A stretch of 64,000 nt of DNA from a virus (lineage: Duplodnaviria; Caudoviricetes): the IMG/VR virus record IMGVR_UViG_3300009873_000081, positions 1 to 64,000 of that record. One strand, given 5' to 3'. Every line of letters begins with the position of its first letter. The stretch's first letter is position 1. Both the position numbers and the translations under genes were made by a program. The notes under the pieces were generated by a model. It was given only the letters and a program-made list of their open reading frames with translations. It searched no databases and was not told where the DNA came from. Positions 9,829-54,527 of the stretch are shown one piece after another.

Positions 9829-10536
9829 TTAATCTTTTGGAACAGCATGGCGATGCACAAAAAACACCGCCTCGCCGTCCATTTTCAGTAGTTTGTCCAA
9901 ATCCTTGAAGGTGATCTTGGCCGAGCCGTTTTCTCCCCAGGACAATCCCCACGAGTTTACCAAATTGACGCAACCTGCCGAAAGCTCGATTTGGTTGGCC
10001 AACAGACAGTGCCCGCCGATAATTTGTCCTGTCGGTCTGATAAAGCCTTTGGTATCCGGCTCCATCATGCCTTCCGTCCAGTAGAGACCGAGCACTGCCG
10101 GGCCATGATAGGCCAACCCTAAAAGCAGGTCAGCCAGTCCAAACGCCCAATAGTAACCTTCGTAGTAACCCAGACGCCTGCCGATTTTGACCCCTGCGAT
10201 AACGCTCGTTCCTTCATACTGCGGGTTGGCATTCGGATATGCGCCGCCTTCCCATTCATCTATCTTCTGTGCCTCCCAATAGATTTTCTCTTCAGCAAAC
10301 CGGTGGTCGATGCCCTTGCTTTCAGCCGGTCGTGCAATCAGTTCGTGTGCGATGCCGTGACCGACGCAACTTCCGGATTGACCTTGATCGAGCAAAGTCA
10401 TACAGCGCCAGGTATAACTTCGCAACGGCTTCTCACCAACCAAATCGCGCACGCGATAGTTTTTGCTTCTCTCGTCAAACTTGGGAATGCGCCCCAGACG
10501 AGGATCGGAAACCAATACGCCGTTTTTTAAAATCAC
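9829..10536 (-). CDS. papain-family (C1) cysteine peptidase
   Basis: DQGQSGSCVG, GGHC and NSWG triad motifs; start re-placed at GTG 10536 (GGAG RBS, GTGA overlap). Confidence 0.85.
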   Translation of the reverse strand: MILKNGVLVSDPRLGRIPKFDERSKNYRVRDLVGEKPLRSYTWRCMTLLDQGQSGSCVGHGIAHELIARPAESKGIDHRFAEEKIYWEAQKIDEWEGGAYPNANPQYEGTSVIAGVKIGRRLGYYEGYYWAFGLADLLLGLAYHGPAVLGLYWTEGMMEPDTKGFIRPTGQIIGGHCLLANQIELSAGCVNLVNSWGLSWGENGSAKITFKDLDKLLKMDGEAVFFVHRHAVPKD

Positions 10537-38602: not shown

Positions 38603-40657
38603 CTATTTGGTTTTTTGTCTGCCGTTTTTCTTTACATCACGTACTGCTCTTTGTAATTCTCTCCTTTGAAATTTCATGTCTGCAACGAAGCGGCTGATTT
38701 CCGGTTCGATCTCGGATACGGCTTTTTCCCTTTGCAACGACGTGACCATTTCCTGTAGCCGTCCAAGTTGCTGTTGCAGTACCTTTATCGTCTGTCCCGA
38801 TTGCTCGTTGGCCTGTTGTAATTGAACCGTAGTATCAATCGTCTGCAAAATCTCCTGACGTTCCGACTCGCGTAAACCAGGTAGCCTTTTCAAAACTTCG
38901 CCAATAAGTGCTGGCTGCTGCTGACTGAGTTGCTGAAGAACTTGCAGTTCGTAAACCGATTGCGCTGGCATAGTCGAACCGAGCTTGATTCGGTAGTTGG
39001 CTTTGATCGAATTGAGATCGTGCAAAGTTTCCCAAGCTCCAGTGACTTCGTTATAATAAGGAGCGTTGATTTCTCTGGTAATAGGCTTTTGATCTGCACC
39101 AACCAATTGAAAAACTTTATGCCATGTATAAAACGAAGTCTGCCATTCCAGCATATTATTAAAACTACGTTCGATGGCTATTTCCAAACGGGACAAAGGT
39201 ATTCTGAGGATGTCTGTGGCCCAGGCTCCTAATTGTTGCGTAGCAGCAAAAGTCTCAGGAGCACCACGAGGATCGCCAGTTCTCATACTGTAAGTCGAAA
39301 GCTGAAACTCCATTGCTTGGGCAAAATATTGCACCAGTGTAAACCACGCAACAGGAAGCGGTTCCGGTCTGACAATTTCCCCTGGAAACTTGCCTGTCAC
39401 CGGGTGCATCTTGATATTATGCCAGCTTCCAGGAATGGAAAAATCTCGCTGGAACTTCTTCATATCGTTAATGCCTGCCACTCCGGCATCAACGATAACC
39501 CGCCAATTAGATGCAAGCGCAGCATTGAGAAGTGTCAATCCAATGGCCGCATTGAGCATTTCCTGCTGGCCGATCATAAAATCGACTTCGGCCAACGGCA
39601 TTGAGTTTCCCGTATCTTCACCAATAACCGGCACAACGGGATAATTGGAAATCGGTAGAATCTCTTCTGATTCGGGAACCAACACACGCCCTGAAAGCTG
39701 CTGATACTTGTGGACGCGCCAAACTGGGGCTTCTACTTCTTCAAGCCTGAGCATTTCAACTTGTCTGCGATCAATACCAAGTTGTGTAAGTTGAGCATCT
39801 TCAACTTTCTTTTGCAAAAAGACCTTATCAATATCACTTGGCTCTTCATCGTCATCAAGGACTTTGTAGACCAGCCCTGTCGATTTCTGCCGCAACACCC
39901 TAACGTCAGTTATTTGTCTGCGGTAAACATCAAGTACCCGAATAAAATCGGCTTTCTCTTCCTTGTAGACATTCGTGATAATTCTTGGCGTTGAGGTCTC
40001 TATCTCCTGCCCGTGCGTAGTGCGGCCTTCCCAATAAATTTCGTCATTATGACAATAAATACTTTGGTCGTTGGGAATTTGATCCCTAATCTTTTTTGGT
40101 AAACTTGCAAAGAAATCAAGCGGCCTTAAAAGCTTGGTAACGATGATAACTGGCGCATCGTCAAATAAAGGATGAGCACCAGCAGCCTTATCAGTAAAAA
40201 CGTTGCGATAAGAAAGATCACGAAATCTTAGTTCTCCGCGTCCATAGTCAGCAATATTGTCCACATCGTTGAGAATCCAACCGATGCCGTGCTTTTGCTG
40301 ACGTGTTACTGTGCGCTCCATGAGCACGCTGCCCAAAGATTGATAAAAATGATAATCAAGAAAGTCATTCAGAACTTGCGCCAGTCCCACGTCTTCCTTG
40401 CGAGTGCCATAGACAATACCTGTAGGCTTTTGAGCAATCATCATACTTATTCTGGTCAAAAGCAACGGGCGAAGCTTATTGAGCACAATGTCACTGCCGC
40501 CCCTCGCACGAAGCTTGTCCGACCACCCTTTCGTGTGTTGAGCACCAGCAACAGCCTTCTCATTCTTATCACGACCGCGCCGCCACTCCTGGCTATCAGT
40601 TTTGTATGCCTCGTAAGCATCCCAATCCATTTTTATTTGTTGGTCATTTACTGCCAT
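38603..40657 (-). CDS. portal protein (P22-like)
   Basis: GAQH...LRARG...NKLRP, HGIGW, YPVVP, QEMLN motifs; position after TerL. Confidence 0.85.
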   Translation of the reverse strand: MAVNDQQIKMDWDAYEAYKTDSQEWRRGRDKNEKAVAGAQHTKGWSDKLRARGGSDIVLNKLRPLLLTRISMMIAQKPTGIVYGTRKEDVGLAQVLNDFLDYHFYQSLGSVLMERTVTRQQKHGIGWILNDVDNIADYGRGELRFRDLSYRNVFTDKAAGAHPLFDDAPVIIVTKLLRPLDFFASLPKKIRDQIPNDQSIYCHNDEIYWEGRTTHGQEIETSTPRIITNVYKEEKADFIRVLDVYRRQITDVRVLRQKSTGLVYKVLDDDEEPSDIDKVFLQKKVEDAQLTQLGIDRRQVEMLRLEEVEAPVWRVHKYQQLSGRVLVPESEEILPISNYPVVPVIGEDTGNSMPLAEVDFMIGQQEMLNAAIGLTLLNAALASNWRVIVDAGVAGINDMKKFQRDFSIPGSWHNIKMHPVTGKFPGEIVRPEPLPVAWFTLVQYFAQAMEFQLSTYSMRTGDPRGAPETFAATQQLGAWATDILRIPLSRLEIAIERSFNNMLEWQTSFYTWHKVFQLVGADQKPITREINAPYYNEVTGAWETLHDLNSIKANYRIKLGSTMPAQSVYELQVLQQLSQQQPALIGEVLKRLPGLRESERQEILQTIDTTVQLQQANEQSGQTIKVLQQQLGRLQEMVTSLQREKAVSEIEPEISRFVADMKFQRRELQRAVRDVKKNGRQKTK

Positions 40658-41068: not shown

Positions 41069-42733
41069 TTAATAAATCCCAAGTTCAGCAAAATTTGTCG
41101 GCACAAAGCCCAAATCGTCGTCAGGCTCGTCGCGCTCGATTCTGAATTTTTCCAATCTTGTTAAGGCTCGAAACAAAGGCTCAGTACAAACGTGAGAATT
41201 TTCTTCACCAAATTGCAATGAATCGAGAAGGTGAGGCGATTTCATAGAGTCAAACAAACGACCTTCATGCTCGATTTCTTTCATTTCTGGCCTTATGGCA
41301 ATCTGTCCTAACGAAAGACGAGGGTTCAAACCAGCATAAATACGGCCTTTTTTGTCTGGCGGCTGGTACTTGATAAAGATTGGCGAAAACGGATATTTGG
41401 CAAAGAATGTATCACCAACAACTTTTTCGTTGGTCATAGGCGCGTAGATTCTGGCTCCGCCAATGGCCTCGATAACGACGCTATTATAGAAATATTTTTT
41501 ATGCAGCTCTAAAGCTCGATCTATAATTTTAGTTGGCGACATAAAATTGTAATCAAACTCTAAAATCCAAGTCATATTAAAAACAATCGGTTCTCCGATG
41601 TTCTCGATTCTTTTAAAAACTCTGCCACGAGCGACGGTCATCAAAACCCGCTCGTCAGCGTTGTCGCCTTCAGCAAAGGCAGGATCAATATAGAGAAAGG
41701 TATAAACCGGAATTGGATCGGGGTATTCGTCAGAGATCAAAACATTTTGCACACCTTCGTAGCGTTTGAACGTCATGTGGTGATAAACCCATCCTGTCAG
41801 TTCCTTAGTCAATTCCGGAATGATCACATTTTGACGCTCTGCCAGGAAAATACCTCTTTTACCTTCTTCAACAGCTTTCTTTGCCTGTGCTCTTAATCTC
41901 TCAGTTGGATGATAGCTTTCCCAGATACTAACGCCTTTGATTTCTTTTGGATCGTCAAGTAAATCAGGAGAGCCGTCAGGAAGCACCAGTGAGTGAAAGG
42001 AAGTTCCTTTGTATTTCTTATCCTTCATAATGTGGTCGAGCAAACAGCCGGGGCCAAGCAAATTTCCAATATACCTGACCTTGCCATAAGTTGAATCTAT
42101 TGCGTACTCAACTTCTCTCTCCCAGAAGGATTTATGCGACTCAAGCGTGGAAGGCTCACGCATGTCTGGTGAGTCTTCTACATCATCGCCTAGTATCAAA
42201 GTATAACGCCAGCCCTTTTTCTGACCGGAACGCACACTACCTCCCAAACCGATTGAGCGCAGATAAACGCCGTTGGTCGGCGCAATCTCGTGCGCACTCC
42301 AAACCGATTCTCGGCTTTGTGGCCTAAGCTCACCATAAACTTCTAACAACTTTGGATTGCACTCAATATCAAATTTTAGATCGGCAAGCATGGCTTTGCC
42401 GGAATCCCCCACCTTACCGATAAGTAGAATATAAGGCTCAAGCTTATAGTAAATTCTATAGAGCGTATTAAAGCGAACGTGACTCGTTTTTGCGAGTTCG
42501 CGTGGGCTTGTACAGTAATAATATTGGTAGTTTAGGGCAAGAGAGTAATGAATGCCCCAGTGTGGAGGAGCAATATCCTGAGTTCGCATATAAAAATGCG
42601 GCTCGTTCTCAGGATCACCAAAGAAATACATCGACCAGGCAATAACACGCTTGGTCGTCTCGGTAGGATCGTTTGGCACTGGCGCGAACTCAGCTTTAAT
42701 CGCTTCGCGCTGGCTTTTAGTCAAGCTGAACAA
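41069..42733 (-). CDS. terL: terminase large subunit
   Basis: Walker A PRELAKTS, Walker B LILGDDVE, IGN coupling motif, nuclease IDPA and IEA. Confidence 0.9.
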   Translation of the reverse strand: MFSLTKSQREAIKAEFAPVPNDPTETTKRVIAWSMYFFGDPENEPHFYMRTQDIAPPHWGIHYSLALNYQYYYCTSPRELAKTSHVRFNTLYRIYYKLEPYILLIGKVGDSGKAMLADLKFDIECNPKLLEVYGELRPQSRESVWSAHEIAPTNGVYLRSIGLGGSVRSGQKKGWRYTLILGDDVEDSPDMREPSTLESHKSFWEREVEYAIDSTYGKVRYIGNLLGPGCLLDHIMKDKKYKGTSFHSLVLPDGSPDLLDDPKEIKGVSIWESYHPTERLRAQAKKAVEEGKRGIFLAERQNVIIPELTKELTGWVYHHMTFKRYEGVQNVLISDEYPDPIPVYTFLYIDPAFAEGDNADERVLMTVARGRVFKRIENIGEPIVFNMTWILEFDYNFMSPTKIIDRALELHKKYFYNSVVIEAIGGARIYAPMTNEKVVGDTFFAKYPFSPIFIKYQPPDKKGRIYAGLNPRLSLGQIAIRPEMKEIEHEGRLFDSMKSPHLLDSLQFGEENSHVCTEPLFRALTRLEKFRIERDEPDDDLGFVPTNFAELGIY

Positions 42734-42888: not shown

Positions 42889-43530
42889 CTATGCACTAAA
42901 AATAAAAGCGTGATTCTCGAAATTTTTTAAATTGCCAAACTGTCCGTGATTTTTGTAGTATTCGAGCTTGAAGCCCAAATCCTGCATTAAGCCTGTCAAG
43001 TCCTTGTCAGTAATGCCGTATTGCCAGATCGCCGTCGAATCGGGATTTCTTTCAATATCTTGATACGACGGATGCTTTTGATCGTGAGGTACATTCCTGA
43101 AATATTCATCCATGCCCAAACCAAGCAGTCTTATCGAGCTTTCTGATTTGATCCACATCGGATTATAGATCAAAAAGGTCTTGACTTGTTTGGCATAAAG
43201 CTTGATAACGCTTTTCCAATCCGGCTTTGCCTGATGCAACAATACGTCAAACATAAAGGCAACATCGGCATTGCCGATCTGTCCGGCGATTTTAGGCGTG
43301 GCAAAGTTCCCGCAAATGTCGTAAAGATTCTTTTGGCCGTTTTTTATCTGATAGAATTTTTCTGAAAAAGAGCTGTCAACGATATAAGCACACTCAGAAT
43401 GATACTTGCCGAAAGCATAAAACGTGTAAGCCCCGTCTACGTTCCAATTGCCGCCCAGATCGACAAACGATTTCGGCTTCGGCTCCCGGCTAAAAGCCAG
43501 GTCGATCAATTCAAGCTTGTGCTGATTCAC
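42889..43530 (-). CDS. SAM methyltransferase-like protein
   Basis: FVDLGG and DVAFMFDVLLHQ. Confidence 0.65.
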   Translation of the reverse strand: MNQHKLELIDLAFSREPKPKSFVDLGGNWNVDGAYTFYAFGKYHSECAYIVDSSFSEKFYQIKNGQKNLYDICGNFATPKIAGQIGNADVAFMFDVLLHQAKPDWKSVIKLYAKQVKTFLIYNPMWIKSESSIRLLGLGMDEYFRNVPHDQKHPSYQDIERNPDSTAIWQYGITDKDLTGLMQDLGFKLEYYKNHGQFGNLKNFENHAFIFSA

Positions 43531-44012
43531 TTTTTCTCAAATTGAAAGTAAGCGTAGCCGTCTGCGACCGTTCGGAGAGTCGGGACGTAGCCTAAACCAA
43601 GCAAACGGTCATATTGCTCGATCATCTTTTTGTTGTTGGGTGCTTCGGGATTTTTGAAGAGCACACCAGCATTTTCCAAATCGAGTAGAGCTAATGGCAT
43701 TTTTAGAAAGTCATAAGGTGAGAGTGGCTTTGGCTCTGATGTCTCGATTGTTCCGCCAATCTTTACATTTTGCAACGGTGTTGTCTTAGGCTGATCTTCA
43801 ATACCGCGTAAAATAGGTTGAGGAAGAGCCTGTTTGATCGTTGGCTCGACAACAGGATATGGATGCTTTGGGATGGGAGCGTCTTTTGGTTGCTCTTTTG
43901 GCTTGGATAAAATCTCAGAAAAGGTTTTTGCCGGACGTTTAGCAACAGCTTCCGGTTCAAGATTTTTCTTCGTTGCTTTGACATCAGGTTCCTTACTTTT
44001 TGCCTTTGCCAT
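43527..44012 (-). CDS. hypothetical Lys/Pro-rich protein
   Basis: ORF coupled on both sides. Confidence 0.55.
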   Translation of the reverse strand: MAKAKSKEPDVKATKKNLEPEAVAKRPAKTFSEILSKPKEQPKDAPIPKHPYPVVEPTIKQALPQPILRGIEDQPKTTPLQNVKIGGTIETSEPKPLSPYDFLKMPLALLDLENAGVLFKNPEAPNNKKMIEQYDRLLGLGYVPTLRTVADGYAYFQFEKK

Positions 44013-44157
44013 AACCTTTTGCCTTCGTTGGAGTTTTACCGCCCGCCAGCAATCCCATTAAACCGCGTTGTGCCGAAGTCAGAGGCTTGCCATGCACTGT
44101 GCCGTCTTTTAAGATTCGCTTGGCCTTATATCTTGATAGCAATTTCTTCTTTGGCAC
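43993..44157 (-). CDS. small basic protein with N-terminus supplied by the endonuclease insert
   Basis: AAGGAG-N7-GTG; MPKKKLLSRYKAKRILKDGTVHGKPLTSAQRGLMGLLAGG... Confidence 0.7.
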   Translation of the reverse strand: MPKKKLLSRYKAKRILKDGTVHGKPLTSAQRGLMGLLAGGKTPTKAKGYGKGKK

Positions 44158-45256: not shown

Positions 45257-45304
45257 TCACTTCCCAGCTTTTGCTTTGGATGGGTATTTTCTTTTCTTAG
45301 CCAT
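45257..45304 (-). pseudogene. orphan 5' stub of the small basic gene
   Basis: MAKKRKYPSKAKAGK*, ATG overlapping the upstream stop. Confidence 0.55.
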
Positions 45305-46808
45305 TTGAAATCTCCTTTGCTCGATTCAGTGTTTCGCCGATCATATCTTCAAAATTAAGCGGCACTGGCTCAAACAAGCTTTCCGGCGCTGCAACCGCAG
45401 GGCTTAGATTGTAACCTGAATCTTTGGCGCGTTTTGGCCATCGTGCCATTACGTTGGATTCAAATTCCGGCTCAACCTTATACCATTTGCCCTGCCACTT
45501 TAGATCGAGCTTGGGATCAGGCGCTTGGGTTTCTGTAGCATACTCCGAAAGCATGTACTCGATCCAGGACAAGCGGACTGCATTTTCCACCTGCGGCGGG
45601 CTTTTTCTTTGTTCCAGCGCGATATTGGGATGGTCTAATGCACTGGCTTCGATAACATGGCTGCTCTTCTCGAATGCGGCAATGAATTGCGCCTCTTTTA
45701 CCGGACGATAGAAAGCCACAAATTTAACGTTTTCTCCGGCCAACACACTTTCCGCTTTTTTCCAAAACGCTTCCGGTATATCGTGAGCACGGTCAAAAAC
45801 AATCAGCAAATTAGTCTCGCGTTTCGGCTCGAAAAGTGTAATGTCTTTGGCAGTCAAACCCTGCGCATAGTGACTATAATTCATCTCCATGCGCGGCGCT
45901 TTGGGAGAGAGTCCAAAACGTTCTCCTCTTTGCATTCTAATCTCAGCCCAAAGCTTGTCCACAAGCAAATCTTCGGTCGGGGCCACTGCCAAAACTACTG
46001 AAGGCACAAAGGCATCGAAGAACCAATTGATTAGAACAGCCGCAATAAAGCTTGCGCCTTGATATTGACTGCCACGAAACAAAATTCGGTTATTTTTGTT
46101 TTTGACTACTGACTGCAAAAGCTCGCTTTGCTTTAGCGTTGGCCTTCTTTTTAGAACATCTCGCATATATTTGAGCGGTAGATCACGATAGCTTTTATAA
46201 TCCCGACCAGCCTCTAAAAAAGCGAAAAGCCTGAAGCGGCTTTCTGGCGGCAGGCTCTTGTCTTCAAGAAGATGCGCAGCTAAAATCCGGTAAGCTGCCT
46301 TTGCCTCTTCAGTCAACGGCAGATCAACATTTTTGATTTCCTCGAATCGGGCTTCTTCTGTTCCATCAGGTAACTCGTCTTCGTTAGCATCGTCATCAAG
46401 CAAAGCTTCGGTACTGATACCAACGCTATCGTGGTTTGGCATTAGCAGTCCGGCAAGATAAGCTTTATGCTCTGCCGGCAACCCTTCTACCATCAACAAA
46501 AAGGCGTCTTCTTTTGACATCTCAGACTGCGGCAGACCATAAAATCGGTTGAGTAGAATGTTGGCAGCAGCTACGCATTGACGATTTTCGGTATTAGTCG
46601 CAACGTCATAAAGCGCGTCAATGACTCGCTTCAAGCGCGACATTTTTGATTTATACCTGTGGTCGGGCCTCTGCATATAAGCCCGACCAAACTCTGCCAA
46701 GCCAAAACCAATTTTGGAGCTTTTGTTATCTCCCGGATACCATTTATTTAAAAAATGATCAGCCGTTTTTGGCGCGGTATAAATTTTACCTGTTTCATAG
46801 TCGCTCAT
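45297..46808 (-). CDS. TerS-like N-terminus fused to inactive TerL-type ATPase domain
   Basis: AANILLNRFYGLP; degenerate Walker A RGSQYQGAS; VAPTED...LWAEI; LIVFDRAH; SALDHPNI; likely start MSDYETG. Confidence 0.7.
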   Translation of the reverse strand: MSDYETGKIYTAPKTADHFLNKWYPGDNKSSKIGFGLAEFGRAYMQRPDHRYKSKMSRLKRVIDALYDVATNTENRQCVAAANILLNRFYGLPQSEMSKEDAFLLMVEGLPAEHKAYLAGLLMPNHDSVGISTEALLDDDANEDELPDGTEEARFEEIKNVDLPLTEEAKAAYRILAAHLLEDKSLPPESRFRLFAFLEAGRDYKSYRDLPLKYMRDVLKRRPTLKQSELLQSVVKNKNNRILFRGSQYQGASFIAAVLINWFFDAFVPSVVLAVAPTEDLLVDKLWAEIRMQRGERFGLSPKAPRMEMNYSHYAQGLTAKDITLFEPKRETNLLIVFDRAHDIPEAFWKKAESVLAGENVKFVAFYRPVKEAQFIAAFEKSSHVIEASALDHPNIALEQRKSPPQVENAVRLSWIEYMLSEYATETQAPDPKLDLKWQGKWYKVEPEFESNVMARWPKRAKDSGYNLSPAVAAPESLFEPVPLNFEDMIGETLNRAKEISNG

Positions 46809-46812
46809 ATTA

Positions 46813-46845
46813 CACAAAGATAAACAATTACTTGAACTCTGTCAA
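46813..46845 (-). promoter_or_regulatory. promoter of packaging operon
   Basis: TTGACA-N17-TATCTT; also reads TATCTTTG (TAnnTTTG). Confidence 0.65.
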
Positions 46846-46876: not shown

Positions 46877-47185
46877 TTATTTTGTTCGCCGGAAGGCAGT
46901 TTGAGGGCAGTGTACAGGCGAAAATTTCGGGATGACTTCGGCAGGTCTGCTCCAGTCTGAAACGAGTCCGCCAATTTTGACTCGCGCTCGAACATCACAT
47001 GGAGCGCCGTAGAGCACGACAAAATTCTTTTCAGACTCAACAGTTTTGAAAACTTGTTTGCCTACGGATGTTAATTGCTCGACTTCAAATATTGCATTTT
47101 CAACATCTGATCCCAAAACCAAGACGGGGCTGTATTGGTCAAGGTCGTAAGAAATGTGCAGAAAAGTGATAAAAATATTAACACT
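46877..47185 (-). pseudogene. FN3-like ORF lacking a start, probably truncated by tnpB
   Basis: VRARVKIGGLVSDWS FN3-like end; open frame runs into the tnpB 3' end. Confidence 0.4.
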
Positions 47186-48425
47186 TGACTTTTTGCGCAG
47201 TCGGACAGACCAGCGCTGGGCGACACACACGCCCTCTATCGGCTATCGGTATCACCGAATCGCCGAATGCTTTCCTTGCTATGCCGATGGCTCCGTTAAC
47301 ATCGGCGTTGATTGTAAATCCAAGCGAGGACTGGAAAAGTCCGCGCTTGATTCGCTTGCCGAGATAGTTCTCGAAATGTTGCATCGGTTCTTTGGCAAAA
47401 TGATCGATCTTGGAAGTGTAGCTTTCCTCGCTCTCCATGACTGTGATACCGTACTCACGCGCCTTGTAGGAAATCATTCCTGCCAAACGAGCATGCGGTA
47501 TTTGCACGAAGTTTTGATTGTTGGATGAACCAAGATTGCTTTCTTGCTTCCAAAATTGATTTCGACCAATGACGATTGTGCCAATGCGATTCTCTATACA
47601 AAAATTTATGATGAATCTGCTGGTCTTGTGCAGGTAATCATTGACTTTGTTGTTGCGTTTCGAGTTTATGCTTTTTATCCTGTGCGAGCTTTTGGTTTTG
47701 ATTATGGATTGCAGACGCGCTTTTTCTTTGTTGAAAGACTGGTTGATCGACTTGAGCGGTCTTCCGTTGATCAACGAACTTTCGGAAACGTTTGAGAACA
47801 TGGCGGCAAGATTGTTCACGCCAAGATCAAGCGATACAAAGTTTTTCGCATCAACTTCGGCAGATTTTATTTCATCATCATACACTATGTCAAAGACGAA
47901 TTTCTGGCTTTGCAATGTAATGCGAACCTGCCGAAATTTATTAGGTTTGATCTTTGTCTTGATCGGCTTTATTTCCTTCAATCCAAACTTATCAAGTTTA
48001 GGAAACTTTATTACGCCACTTTTCACTTGTACCTGCTGGCAAGTAAAAATGACGGTTCCGGTTTTGTTCTCACGAAGATATTTCGGGATTGACGGTTTGG
48101 CCTTGAATGATGATTGATTTTTTTTAAACGCTCTCAACGCTGCAAACCACGATGTAAATGAGCGGCAAGCCTGGATAACTACTTGTTGTGCGGTCTGTGC
48201 TGGTAAGGTGCGATACAATTCATGATTCTCGGAGACGAAAAAATTGATAAAATCTATCGCAGTGAAAACCGGCTCACGCCAAAATACTTTTTGCCGTTGG
48301 ACAAAAATCACCGTGTTGTATAAAGCTTTTGAACGATTGGCAAGCTCAAAAATATTTTTGTCAAACGGTCTAACATGTCGTTCGACTTTTGATATGAGAT
48401 TTTCAGGTTTGTTCTTTCGTTTCAT
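47178..48425 (-). mobile_element. tnpB: IS200/IS605-family TnpB (solo, no tnpA)
   Basis: SLDLGVNN, NGRPLKSIN, DYLHKTS, EESYTSK, RIKRGLF, NADVNGA. Confidence 0.9.
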
Positions 48426-48429
48426 GAAA

Positions 48430-48550
48430 TAAAAAACCCTTGCAAGGTGCCATCGTGATTCACCGAAACGGTGGATTACGAAACCCGCAAGGGTCATTCG
48501 GTAAATCATGATGGCACTTTAAAAATATAAAATTTTTATGTCAAAAGCAA
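48430..48550 (-). promoter_or_regulatory. promoter and attenuator-like leader of tnpB
   Basis: 21-nt imperfect IR interleaved with ACCCTTGC/GCAAGGGT plus T6. Confidence 0.6.
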
Positions 48551-48774
48551 ACACTTTTATCAAATTTATGCACTACAATCGTTTCGGGTGGGTTAAGATC
48601 AGTGCGGTTGCTTTCGAGAATTACAAGTGGGACGTGGGCAGCCAGAGTAAAGAGGAAGATAAAGAACTTGTCCATAAGTTGCTAAACGCTCCTAAAGTTG
48701 TATTATACAGTTCGTTTACCTCCCTCGATAGTCTTTAGGAGCAACTTCAGTGCCTAACGCCGTGCTGCTCAAGA

Positions 48775-52385: not shown

Positions 52386-52429
52386 GGTTGCTATGGTTCA
52401 AGCTTTCCTTCAACTCGTTACCTTTTAGC

Positions 52430-52550
52430 TGCCGGTGTATCGGCACCTGAAGTCTACACTTCAGTTCTTGCTTCTACGAGGGTTCTTACCGACACTCACT
52501 CTCTGCAAGCGTTTAGGCTTTCGCCAAGTTCCGGTGTAACTCACCGTACT
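52430..52550 (-). ncRNA. putative TnpB omega-RNA scaffold and guide
   Basis: overlaps tnpB 3' end; AACGCTTGCAGAGA...CTCGTAGAAGCAAGAA pattern then hairpin CTGAAG/CTTCAG. Confidence 0.55.
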
Positions 52551-53616
52551 TCTTTAAGTTTAGAGCGGCATTCAAATCACGATCAATGGATAAACCGCAA
52601 TCGCAGGTGTAATTTCTATCCGAAAGAGTTAAATCTTCTTTAATTGAACCGCATTTTGAGCAAAGCTTACTTGATGGAAAAAATCTATCAGCCACAATAA
52701 CCTGCTTATTACGCCATTTGGCTTTGTATTCGACCTGCCGACGAATCTCACCAAATCCTATATCGTGAATAGCTCGCGCAAGTTTTTCATTTTTCAACAT
52801 TCCTCGGACATTCAAGTTCTCAAGTACAATTGTGGAAAAATTACCTGTTATATAGTCTGATAGCCTGTGTGCAAAATCTCTTCGAGTGTTAGCTATTCGC
52901 CAGTGCAAAACAGATAAACGTCCTGCTGATTTTATCTGGTTGTTACTACCTTTGGTTTTCTTAGAGTGTTGCCGTTGACGCTTTCTAAGTAATCGCAACT
53001 TCTTACCCAAAGGTCTAGGATTATCAAAAAATTTTCCACTTGATAATACAGCAGCATGCCTTAAGCCAAGATCAACACCAATAACTGCTTGGTTCTCACA
53101 AATTGTTGGTTTGATCTCGGTTTCAAGACATATTGCTACAAACCATCGTCTGCCTTCATAACTTACTGTAGTTGAAAGCAGTCTTCCGCTCCGTCGCATT
53201 GGTTTTGCCATTTTTACGAAACCAATTTTTGACAATCTAATCTTGGTGTCTTTAATATAGAAAGTTCCAGGGCCGTTATCAATTCTTGCTGATTGTTTTC
53301 CTGTTTTCTTTTTAAATCGAGGGTATTTGCCCAATCCCTTAAAAAACCTATCAAAGGCAACACCCAAATTTAAGATTGCCTCTTGCACAACACGTTTTGG
53401 TGATTCATACATCCACGGAAAGTACTCACCTTTGATCTCGTTAAGACCTTTGTTAAGCATTTTGACATTTGGCTTTTGACCGTCTCTACGAAGTGTTTGC
53501 CACATTTCTAAAGCCCAATTATAAGCAAAACGAGATGCTCCAACAGCTTGTTTAAGCTTTTCTTCTTGAAAGACGGTTGGATAAATACGAATCTTCTCTG
53601 CTGCATGAGTTTTCAT
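52513..53616 (-). mobile_element. tnpB: TnpB RNA-guided nuclease (IS605/IS607-type, solo)
   Basis: IRIYPT HTH, GVDLG, VLENL, PSSKLCSKCG Zn ribbon, DRDLNAA; D-E-D intact. Confidence 0.95.
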
Positions 53617-53981
53617 TGGATTTGCCTTCCTTCAACTCCACGTTCGATTCTGGCTTTAGTACGTTTGTTAAGCCATTCTAACGCCTTTTCCAAGTGATAA
53701 TTAGCATAGCCATTTTCTGGACATTTAAATTGACCACTTTGGAAACCATTCAACCGATCAATCACGATTGCAATCAAATTTTCGTTTGTGCAACCGTTGA
53801 CTCCTGCCTCTTGAATTGCACCGTTTTGGAAACTAATCGAGGCAAAAGGCTTATGTCCTTCGCAAGGCACACGATCTTCAGTTGGATAGACTCGATACTC
53901 ATGACAAGCGCCACCTATTCCAGGTAGCCCTAAGCACAGGACTTGTGTACGACCAGGTTCACCGATTTCGACTTTTCTCAT
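53613..53981 (-). CDS. tad1: Tad1-like immune-signal sponge (anti-Thoeris/CBASS)
   Basis: GGACHEY...ISFQNG...DRLNGFQSGQF..PEN...HLEKALEWLNKRTKARIERGVEG matches the Tad1 family pattern as I recall it. Confidence 0.8.
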   Translation of the reverse strand: MRKVEIGEPGRTQVLCLGLPGIGGACHEYRVYPTEDRVPCEGHKPFASISFQNGAIQEAGVNGCTNENLIAIVIDRLNGFQSGQFKCPENGYANYHLEKALEWLNKRTKARIERGVEGRQIQ

Positions 53982-53993
53982 AAAGGTTCCTTT

Positions 53994-54527
53994 CTAAAAA
54001 GCGCTCTTTGAACATTGTTCGTTTAAAACAGGCAAGCGCCCTTCTGATTTCAAAGCATTAAGTATATGCCACACACTGGTTCTTGGTACTCTATTTCCAA
54101 GTTCTTCGGTAATCTTTTCTATATAGCATGTTGACGGATTCGATCTCTTTTGAATCGCTTTTTCATAGGCTAAAAGAACAACAGTCTCTCTTTCCGTATT
54201 CAGCGGCACAGATGAAACAAGTGTTTTCAACTTAACTTTTGGTTGCTTCGGATTTGAGTACCGATGGCCCCCATGAGCTTTTAAAATATCAAAAGCCTGT
54301 CGTTCACTAAAATCAAACCATTCTCCTCTTACACATTTGCTATCCCAAATATCCTGGATTTCTTTCTCTTTCTCCACAGGATCGTCACATTCTATAGCCC
54401 CAAATACTCTTAGTTCCCTCGGATTGCCAACTTGCAATTGTTGCAGCCTCAATTCAGCACTATCCGTTGTAGAACCTATCTTGAAAAAACTGTTCCGCTC
54501 ATCCTGAATAAAATAAACAAATCCCAT
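53994..54527 (-). CDS. T5orf172/GIY-YIG domain protein
   Basis: GFVYFIQ...FKIGST...RLQQLQVGNP...RGEWF. Confidence 0.85.
   Translation of the reverse strand: MGFVYFIQDERNSFFKIGSTTDSAELRLQQLQVGNPRELRVFGAIECDDPVEKEKEIQDIWDSKCVRGEWFDFSERQAFDILKAHGGHRYSNPKQPKVKLKTLVSSVPLNTERETVVLLAYEKAIQKRSNPSTCYIEKITEELGNRVPRTSVWHILNALKSEGRLPVLNEQCSKSAF

Follow-up and report, generated by a model that had tools for sequence, protein, structure and literature searches.

The 64,000-base stretch of viral DNA analysed here (the window), which comprises positions 1 to 64,000 of the linear IMG/VR virus record IMGVR_UViG_3300009873_000081 (103,994 bases, ~79% complete), raises the question of why an uncultured phage that encodes a complete large terminase (TerL) should carry, at the head of the same packaging module, a second gene that resembles one. 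The open reading frame (ORF) concerned is intact on the minus strand, from an ATG at 46808 to a stop codon at 45297-45299, and its exact product of 503 residues is already on record for the 103,994-base contig. The original prediction, made from the sequence alone, had described it as an exapted, catalytically dead TerL from another lineage, with a segment resembling the small terminase (TerS) fused in front of it. On balance we favour, for the whole product, a non-catalytic accessory subunit (partner or adaptor) of the phage's own terminase, which would fill the small-terminase role or bridge to it. The ORF is divided as follows.

45297..46808, minus strand: whole ORF of 503 residues, comprising a putative N-terminal partner domain, a dead TerL ATPase domain and a putative docking tail
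46434..46808, minus strand: N-terminal helical domain (residues 1–125), homologous to proteins P0168 (contig L010, 182 residues) and P0169 (contigs L015/L016, 154 residues)
residues 81–93: AANILLNRFYGLP motif
46332..46433, minus strand: acidic disordered linker (residues 126–159), apparently the C-terminal tail of a formerly separate upstream gene
residues 138–157: acidic stretch
46329..46334, minus strand: fusion junction K159/N160, with 17 nucleotides fewer than Logan contig SRR6032603
46194..46331, minus strand: N-terminal helical extension of the TerL-like part (residues 160–205), 54% mean identity in the close group
45423..46193, minus strand: TerL-type ATPase fold, catalytically dead (residues 206–462), from a predicted local distance difference test (pLDDT) of ~90, Foldseek, VIA-align and hidden Markov model (HMM) matches
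residues 223–227: PTLKQ
46050..46073, minus strand: Walker A remnant GSQYQGAS (residues 246–253), lysine replaced by alanine
residues 275–279: VAPTE
residues 286–294: LWAEIRMQR
45780..45809, minus strand: Walker B remnant LLIVFDRAHD (residues 334–343), aspartate kept, catalytic glutamate replaced by arginine
45702..45713, minus strand: motif III remnant FYRP (residues 366–369), NPT or NPL in active relatives
residues 389–396: SALDHPNI
residues 453–458: VMARWP
45300..45419, minus strand: C-terminal tail (residues 464–503), left over from the linker and the first strand of the nuclease, with a predicted docking site on the TerL N-terminus

Residues ~206–462 of the ORF adopt a TerL ATPase fold, with an agreement far above chance. 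The AlphaFold2 model has a pLDDT of ~90 over residues 200–460, and the first 20 matches of a Foldseek comparison against the PDB are all TerL ATPase domains. VIA-align superposes the model on the ATPase domain of P74-26 TerL (4znl_A) with a Z score of 20.4 and a root-mean-square deviation of 2.7 Å over 208 residues; the Z scores with the TerLs of HK97, T7, T4 and D6E are 17–19, against ~13–14 for helicases. At the sequence level, a tblastn search of 50,697 phage records with the ORF matches TerLs annotated in Arthrobacter, Sinorhizobium and other phages, over their ATPase halves, at 24% identity, with E values down to 9e-10. When 1.84 billion representatives were scored with a profile built from the ORF and close relatives, 3,606 proteins were found, the best matches beyond its own clade being the full-length active TerLs P0020 (E 2.4e-104) and P0021 (E 3.6e-87). 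The active TerL of L015 covers 89–91% of annotated terminases of cultured phages. Against PDB sequences the family profile gave only nuclease-domain matches, to solved TerL nucleases, in the region that is missing from the window protein; since the nuclease region of the family matches solved TerL nucleases, the intact relatives are confirmed as real terminases.

A closer look at the catalytic motifs shows what this domain has lost. Alignment with the active relatives identifies GAS, DR and RP as the true counterparts of GK[ST], DE and NP[TL], and the GSQYQGAS stretch is constant in four close relatives except for a Q/Y exchange. In the L010-type dead relatives the Walker A place is occupied by KYSST or RYSNT and the Walker B place by FDDA or FDNA (DEA in the active enzymes), and NPS or NPT is still present at motif III, where the window subclade has YRP. 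Lysine and glutamate are both missing in only two of ~150 cluster representatives, those of the window cluster and of the P0019/P0007 cluster, all the others retaining GK[ST] or SK[ST]; the same two clusters are the only ones that end ~45 residues past the ATPase domain. The ORF of the window stops ~45 residues after ARWP and has no RNase H-like nuclease domain. In the alignment with the active enzymes, its last helix (MIGETL...) falls on their first nuclease strand (IGCDVAR...), so that the nuclease domain is cut off just past its start. Judged by these replacements and by the truncation, the product would have lost both ATP hydrolysis and DNA cutting. In all these respects the original prediction held, since the frame is intact with every motif that it had named in the order it gave, the C-terminal part is a TerL ATPase domain with altered catalytic motifs by alignment, HMM, Foldseek and VIA-align, and the nuclease domain is absent.

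The dead state is not peculiar to the window. Six diverged relatives (41–71% identity) share the dead motifs and the truncation, and in a maximum-likelihood tree of ATPase cores the six dead proteins form one clade (Shimodaira–Hasegawa approximate likelihood-ratio test, SH-aLRT, 86), sister to P0020 plus P0021, with a support of 100 for the enclosing clade. The window subclade stands on a long stem (0.87) and has short branches within it, and the same tail is present in both dead subclades. Inactivation and truncation most likely happened once.

The dead copy is under purifying selection, at a rate like that of terL and the portal gene. Among the dead-copy relatives the proportion of synonymous differences (pS) is saturated, at 0.71–0.88, and that of nonsynonymous differences (pN) is 0.09–0.24 in the close group; L003 and L013 still share 86% amino-acid identity at a pS of 0.79. 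Between the window and L002 the nonsynonymous divergence (dN) is 0.206 for the dead copy, 0.215 for terL and 0.174 for the portal. The altered motif residues are invariant within the close group, the reading frame is open in seven contigs, and the best-conserved piece of the protein is the tail helix (a mean identity of 85%, compared with 74% in the ATPase core). The description of the gene as an exapted dead TerL is thus sustained, the fold being that of a terminase and the relatives sharing the dead motifs and evolving non-neutrally.

The provenance of the dead copy becomes apparent when it is compared with the packaging genes beside it, which are listed here.

41069..42733, minus strand: working large terminase of the phrog_38 type (E 1.7e-34), with ATPase and nuclease
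~42518-42727, minus strand: predicted docking site on this TerL (N-terminal helices, residues 3–72)
43527..44012, minus strand: 161-residue gene (P0018) between the dead copy and terL, found in all relatives including L017, which is without the dead copy
38603..40657, minus strand: P22-type portal of the packaging module (PF16510, E 2.6e-33)

No similarity is detectable between the dead copy and the resident terL at 41069-42733. The nearest active relatives are P0020, P0021 and the L015 TerL, which are the only TerL beside a P22-type portal and an SU10-type capsid gene in L011, L012, L015 and L016, contigs without a phrog_38-type terL. The contigs with a dead copy have the order dead copy, small genes, phrog_38-type terL (63–73% identical to that of the window) and portal, as seen in the window, the Logan 34.5-kb contig, L002, L003 and L010 (L013 and L014 are too short to reach terL). 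In the window, L002, L003 and L010 the dead copy is thus the first gene of the packaging module, ahead of terL; in the window a 135-residue gene lies on the same strand between terL and the portal. The dead copy is 36–41% identical to the TerLs of L011, L012 and L015, and that of L010 reaches 56–57% with the TerL of L011 or L015, while the portal and capsid genes of the two lineages show no BLAST similarity. Because the dead copy resembles the TerL of the other lineage and the portal and capsid do not, it is a xenologue relative to the resident terL, and the separate TerL lineage proposed in the original prediction is confirmed. Its origin would be either a capture from an L015-like phage or a replacement of the terL-portal-capsid block around it.

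Two further observations concern this other lineage. It has a few other genes in common with the lineage of the window, among them one for a 235-residue protein, encoded at 9835-10536 (minus strand) of the window and at 4603-5310 of L015 and 70% identical between the two, an apparent sign of recent gene exchange between the lineages. The active TerLs of the donor family often carry inteins, and the dead copies have none: one lies in the nuclease domain in L009 (7872-10679, 935 residues), one after the ATPase domain in L011 (5416-8118, 900 residues, LAGLIDADG), and others inside Walker A or Walker B (e.g. P0024, P0041, P0049, P0103 and P0116).

Searches for additional kin added little. The phage collection has no DNA-level match to the window, a single-protein viral scan with the ORF gave no further relatives and two metagenome scans gave none. 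A single-protein viral scan with terL also returned none, L017 alone being gained through the terL alignment.

The segment preceding the core (residues 1–165, pLDDT < 50 in the model) has a different history. Residues 34–123 are homologous to the 182-residue protein of L010 (BLASTP E 1e-11), the gene of which overlaps the start of the dead copy by 11 nucleotides, and the domain also matches P0169 (profile E 2.7e-28; tblastn E 6e-11), which is encoded two genes upstream of the active TerL in L015/L016. In Logan contig SRR6032603 the same proteins are present at 100% identity but as two genes with an ATGA overlap. The first product, P0172 (162 residues), consists of window residues 1–159 followed by EPT and a stop (it ends in IKEPT, five residues after the linker stretch of the feature list), and the second, P0003, begins with MKP (MKPNV) and is then identical to the window. 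An indel of 17 nucleotides follows from these two proteins and from the gene coordinates of the Logan contig (494 nucleotides there, 477 in the window); with 17 nucleotides fewer, the stop of the first gene and the ATG of the second are removed and the frames are joined. The fusion, which is peculiar to this record, appears to be a very recent variant of a translationally coupled gene pair and not a conserved architecture, and it suggests that both products work together.

The conserved fusion anticipated by the original prediction is therefore not upheld, given that a contig with otherwise identical products has two genes and that the partner is not adjacent in L002, L003 and L013. Its term TerS-like for the N-terminus is weakened, having a basis in the gene position beside active TerLs in L015/L016 but not in homology to any TerS family. 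An hhalign comparison of the domain with the Terminase_2-type TerS of L007/L008 gave a probability of 0.2%. As a single query the domain produced no matches, because the near-identical P0172 is hidden inside the P0003 cluster.

The C-terminal tail offers a possible connection between the dead copy and the motor. Alone it is disordered (monomer pLDDT 38–53). Prediction of a complex between the working TerL and the dead core gave a score of 0.71 (0.71, 0.71 and 0.72 in the runs; best of three controls 0.01). Among solved complexes 58 of 80 attain this level, and among mismatched pairs 2 of 110, counts that apply here roughly because own alignments were used for the prediction; recall of a known complex by the predictor may contribute to the score. 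We know of no solved complex resembling TerL with the dead core. The runs share at least 71% of the contacts, with a partner pLDDT of at least 80. In the predicted interface, residues 305–344 of the dead core (of 344) lie on TerL residues 3–36, 53–72, 96–100, 212–218 and 240–244; that is, the tail is placed on the N-terminal helices of TerL, and not ATPase fold on ATPase fold. This N-terminus of TerL is strongly conserved in L002, L003 and L010, and in L017. Small terminases bind TerL through a C-terminal segment.

The working TerL has PRELAKTS as Walker A and LILGDD as Walker B. Its Walker A (42478-42501, minus strand) carries alanine at the second glycine, as in L003, L010 and L017, only L002 having glycine there (PRESGKTT); the Walker A lysine is invariant in the working TerLs.

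The contig L017 (8 kb) shows what may stand in place of the dead copy. Its terL and portal are 66% and 62% identical to those of the window, a homologue of the 161-residue gene is present and there is no dead copy. The equivalent slot is occupied by a 170-residue helix-turn-helix (HTH) protein with matches to gene 1 of phages of Arthrobacter, Microbacterium and Gordonia, a gene annotated in several of them as terminase small subunit; no homologue of this protein exists in the 104-kb record of the window. As the module of the window sits where L017 has a small-terminase-like HTH gene, it likely fills or bridges the small-terminase role. Of the three functions offered in the original prediction, a regulator or adaptor of the motor thus gains in-silico support from the complex prediction and from this slot, and no positive evidence was found here for a poison subunit or an Avs decoy.

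We infer a small-terminase-like or adaptor role for the module, and DNA binding by its N-terminal domain. In this scheme the core would be a TerL ATPase domain from the foreign lineage that serves L011/L012/L015-type phages, which, deprived of its entire nuclease domain and, through loss of the Walker A lysine, the Walker B glutamate and motif III, of ATP hydrolysis, would be left as a folded scaffold with a conserved 40-residue tail. The tail, disordered alone, would dock as a helix on the helical domain at the N-terminus of the working TerL, much as small terminases grip the TerL N-terminus with a C-terminal segment, and the module would bring a DNA-recognition partner to the motor, regulate the motor, or both. 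The partner here would be the fused N-terminal domain of 159 residues, which is separate and translationally coupled in L010 and in the Logan contig. A more specific form of this scheme is conceivable, though we hold it with considerable doubt: the adaptor would plug a foreign DNA-recognition module into a non-cognate motor, the TerS-position protein and its TerL having been captured together, the TerL stripped to an inert scaffold that still holds its partner, and the tail having come to mimic the grip of the resident small terminase (as kept in L017) on the resident TerL, so as to replace that small terminase.

Several points weigh against an accessory subunit of this kind. The binding to TerL is a prediction, for which the two alignments had 4 and 6 rows. 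As for the fusion, it may be an error of assembly, or a variant that is rare or even harmful. Neither the N-terminal domain nor its homologues match a TerS family in Pfam or PHROG; a language-model likeness of P0169 to DUF5681 clusters (0.94, 157–160 shared features) lies below the level of true members and was set aside, the Pfam HMM having failed to confirm it. Just upstream of the dead copy, L002, L003 and L013/L014 carry an unrelated gene of 90–96 residues, followed by TTGAC-N17-TATCTT and a leader, and the N-terminal domain shows no similarity to these upstream ORFs of L002 and L013; the dead copy thus persists there without an adjacent partner, unless these short contigs stop before reaching the partner. 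For the slot argument there is a single 8-kb contig, L017, and the 161-residue gene beside terL could itself be the real small terminase.

The same predicted tail-TerL interface would also suit a negative regulator, in which the tail fills the N-terminal groove of TerL and silences ATPase and nuclease until procapsid or DNA is present, with no DNA recognition involved. Such a function would agree with the retention of the dead copy in L002, L003 and L013 without an adjacent N-terminal partner, and with a selection comparable to that on terL. It provides no reason, however, for keeping a 250-residue ATPase fold at 74% identity when a short tail would suffice, and it leaves the coupling or fusion to a TerS-position partner unexplained, so that we consider it rather unlikely.

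A function directed at competitors appears improbable. In this case the captured dead subunit and its recognition protein would poison the pentameric motor of co-infecting L015-type phages, or titrate their pac sites or their small terminase. In its favour, the active enzymes closest to the dead copy are the sole TerLs of another lineage (56–57% between the L010 copy and L011/L015), the portal and capsid genes of which are not BLAST-similar, and the exchange of genes exemplified by the 235-residue protein indicates that the two lineages probably meet in the same hosts. Yet the part of the protein that is conserved best is the tail, a new element with a predicted binding site on the resident TerL, which is unrelated to the dead copy; the gene itself occupies the TerS slot at the front of the phage's own packaging genes, and the window subclade, on its long stem branch, is only 36–41% identical to the supposed targets.

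It is very unlikely that the dead ATPase fold acts as a decoy which soaks up or mis-triggers the TerL sensors of Avs-type STAND NTPases. The fold does resemble the TerL of the Avs3-terminase complex 8dgc_E (Z 14.8), and other counter-defence-like genes occur in the genome, such as one for an Acb2/Tad1-hairpin protein in the near-identical contig. Recognition by Avs3 reportedly uses the nucleotide-bound ATPase active site and the nuclease active site, both of which are gone from the ORF, and the gene is placed with the late packaging genes instead of with early genes of anti-defence.

That the gene is a relic without function, left by a displaced or captured terminase and on its way to loss, or that it encodes the ATPase half of a working TerL split in two, is scarcely credible even though all the catalytic motifs and the nuclease domain are lost, a homing endonuclease and a TnpB element flank the gene and split TerL genes are reported elsewhere (PMC10773633): the neutral relic was rejected on the saturated pS with a pN of 0.09–0.24, the frames open in seven contigs and the dead-state residues invariant in the close group, and the split enzyme because a nuclease half is missing and the resident terL, with both its domains, is complete, while the copy is dead.

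Dead TerL-like genes that might serve as accessory subunits of a working terminase are of a kind already known but barely described. A 'truncated large terminase' beside terL occurs in RaK2-like jumbo phages (CBB_274 of vB_PcaM_CBB), phiM12 and phiN3, all of them noted without a function (Buttimer et al. 2017, PMC5259590). Like these copies, the gene of the window stands alone as an incomplete TerL-like gene directly before the working terL, where a small terminase would be expected, and is conserved across a phage group. Unlike those copies, which are of the gp17 type and belong to T4-like myoviruses, it comes from a different TerL family and from another lineage than the resident terL, and has a coupled or fused partner and a predicted docking tail. 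The tblastn of the ORF against the phage records returned only full-length TerLs and no RaK2-like record, no pairwise comparison with CBB_274 being made; the different TerL family and the missing RaK2-like match point to an independent origin, here in a different TerL family and phage type. None of the following is reported for the others: a foreign origin, a partner gene coupled or fused to the copy, a tail with a predicted docking site, and a relative in which a conventional gene fills the slot. The literature on pseudo-terminases, inactive TerL paralogues and second or truncated terminases yielded no functional study. As parallels, the 'two large terminase genes' of phiPDS1 were rejected as a split gene and the 'second terminase' of Xanthomonas phages as an allelic variant.

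With the active TerLs (P74-26 4znl and 7ks4; L011, L012, L015) the window protein shares the fold, homology, the Q-motif region, the Walker B aspartate and LDHPN. It differs from them in the missing Walker A lysine and catalytic glutamate, the changed motif III, the absent nuclease domain and the new conserved C-terminal tail. With small terminases (lambda gpNu1, P22 gp3 and the Terminase_2 protein upstream of terL in L007) it has in common that its gene opens the packaging module, that a C-terminal segment is predicted to lie on the TerL N-terminus and, in the fused form, that an N-terminal helical domain is followed by a flexible linker; unlike them, it has no TerS-family homology and an ATPase fold at its centre instead of an oligomerisation ring.

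Terminases are the best-studied viral motors, and dead truncated TerL copies beside terL have been mentioned only in passing since 2017. The present copy is of foreign origin and not a local duplicate. It is inherited together with a protein that, in the donor lineage, has the position of a small terminase next to the active enzymes, and one strain has the two fused. A relative with the same motor and portal has a conventional small-terminase-like HTH gene in the slot, and the short, highly conserved tail is predicted to dock on the working TerL. Taken together, these points make the function of dead TerL copies testable, with exact constructs. Were the adaptor role correct, phages would be able to swap DNA-recognition specificity between otherwise incompatible packaging machines, the terminase would join the motors that recruit pseudo-enzyme subunits, and, should the more specific form of the scheme hold, the 'truncated terminases' of jumbo and other phages might represent a general route for swapping packaging specificity between terminase lineages.

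The remaining features around the dead copy are the following.

46817..46845, minus strand: promoter-like TTGACA-N17-TATCTT, 8 nucleotides before the ATG, also upstream of the dead-TerL gene in L002, L003, L013 and L014
44126-45250, minus strand: homing endonuclease, HNH-type (phrog_5046) plus LAGLIDADG, 374 residues, directly downstream of the dead TerL
42889-43530, minus strand: 213-residue ORF between the 161-residue gene and terL
47178-48509: TnpB element upstream of the dead-TerL ORF

The first of these owes its promoter-like status to its conservation across the relatives and not to the consensus scan, which by itself is not above chance (15 found, 13.1 expected). In L002 (751-880), L003 (70-209) and L013 (613-791) a leader of 100–170 nucleotides separates the element from the start codon, with conserved blocks such as CGGAGGTTGGAA and GCAAGGCTTTT.

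The homing endonuclease is missing at the equivalent site in L002, L003 and L010, where a small basic gene of 51–56 residues follows directly; its counterpart in the window (region 43993-44157, match 44023-44136, both minus strand) abuts the 3' end of the endonuclease gene. No usable Atlas lead was obtained for the 161-residue neighbour P0018. The 213-residue ORF at 42889-43530 has no family match, and its homologue is found only in L013 (46% over 112 residues), being absent from L002, L003, L010 and L017. On the other side of the dead copy, the TnpB element splits a gene (46877-48675, minus strand) that is intact, with 125 residues, in L002 (76-453) and L013, the halves matching the window at 48553-48675 and 46934-47161. 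A protein of the Acb2/Tad1-hairpin type (anti-CBASS/Thoeris sponge family) is encoded directly upstream of a second TnpB, at ~52400-54000 of the window, and a radical-SAM and methyltransferase pair lies between this second TnpB and the one upstream of the packaging module, the Acb2/Tad1-hairpin and radical-SAM genes having been placed through the gene list of the near-identical Logan contig.

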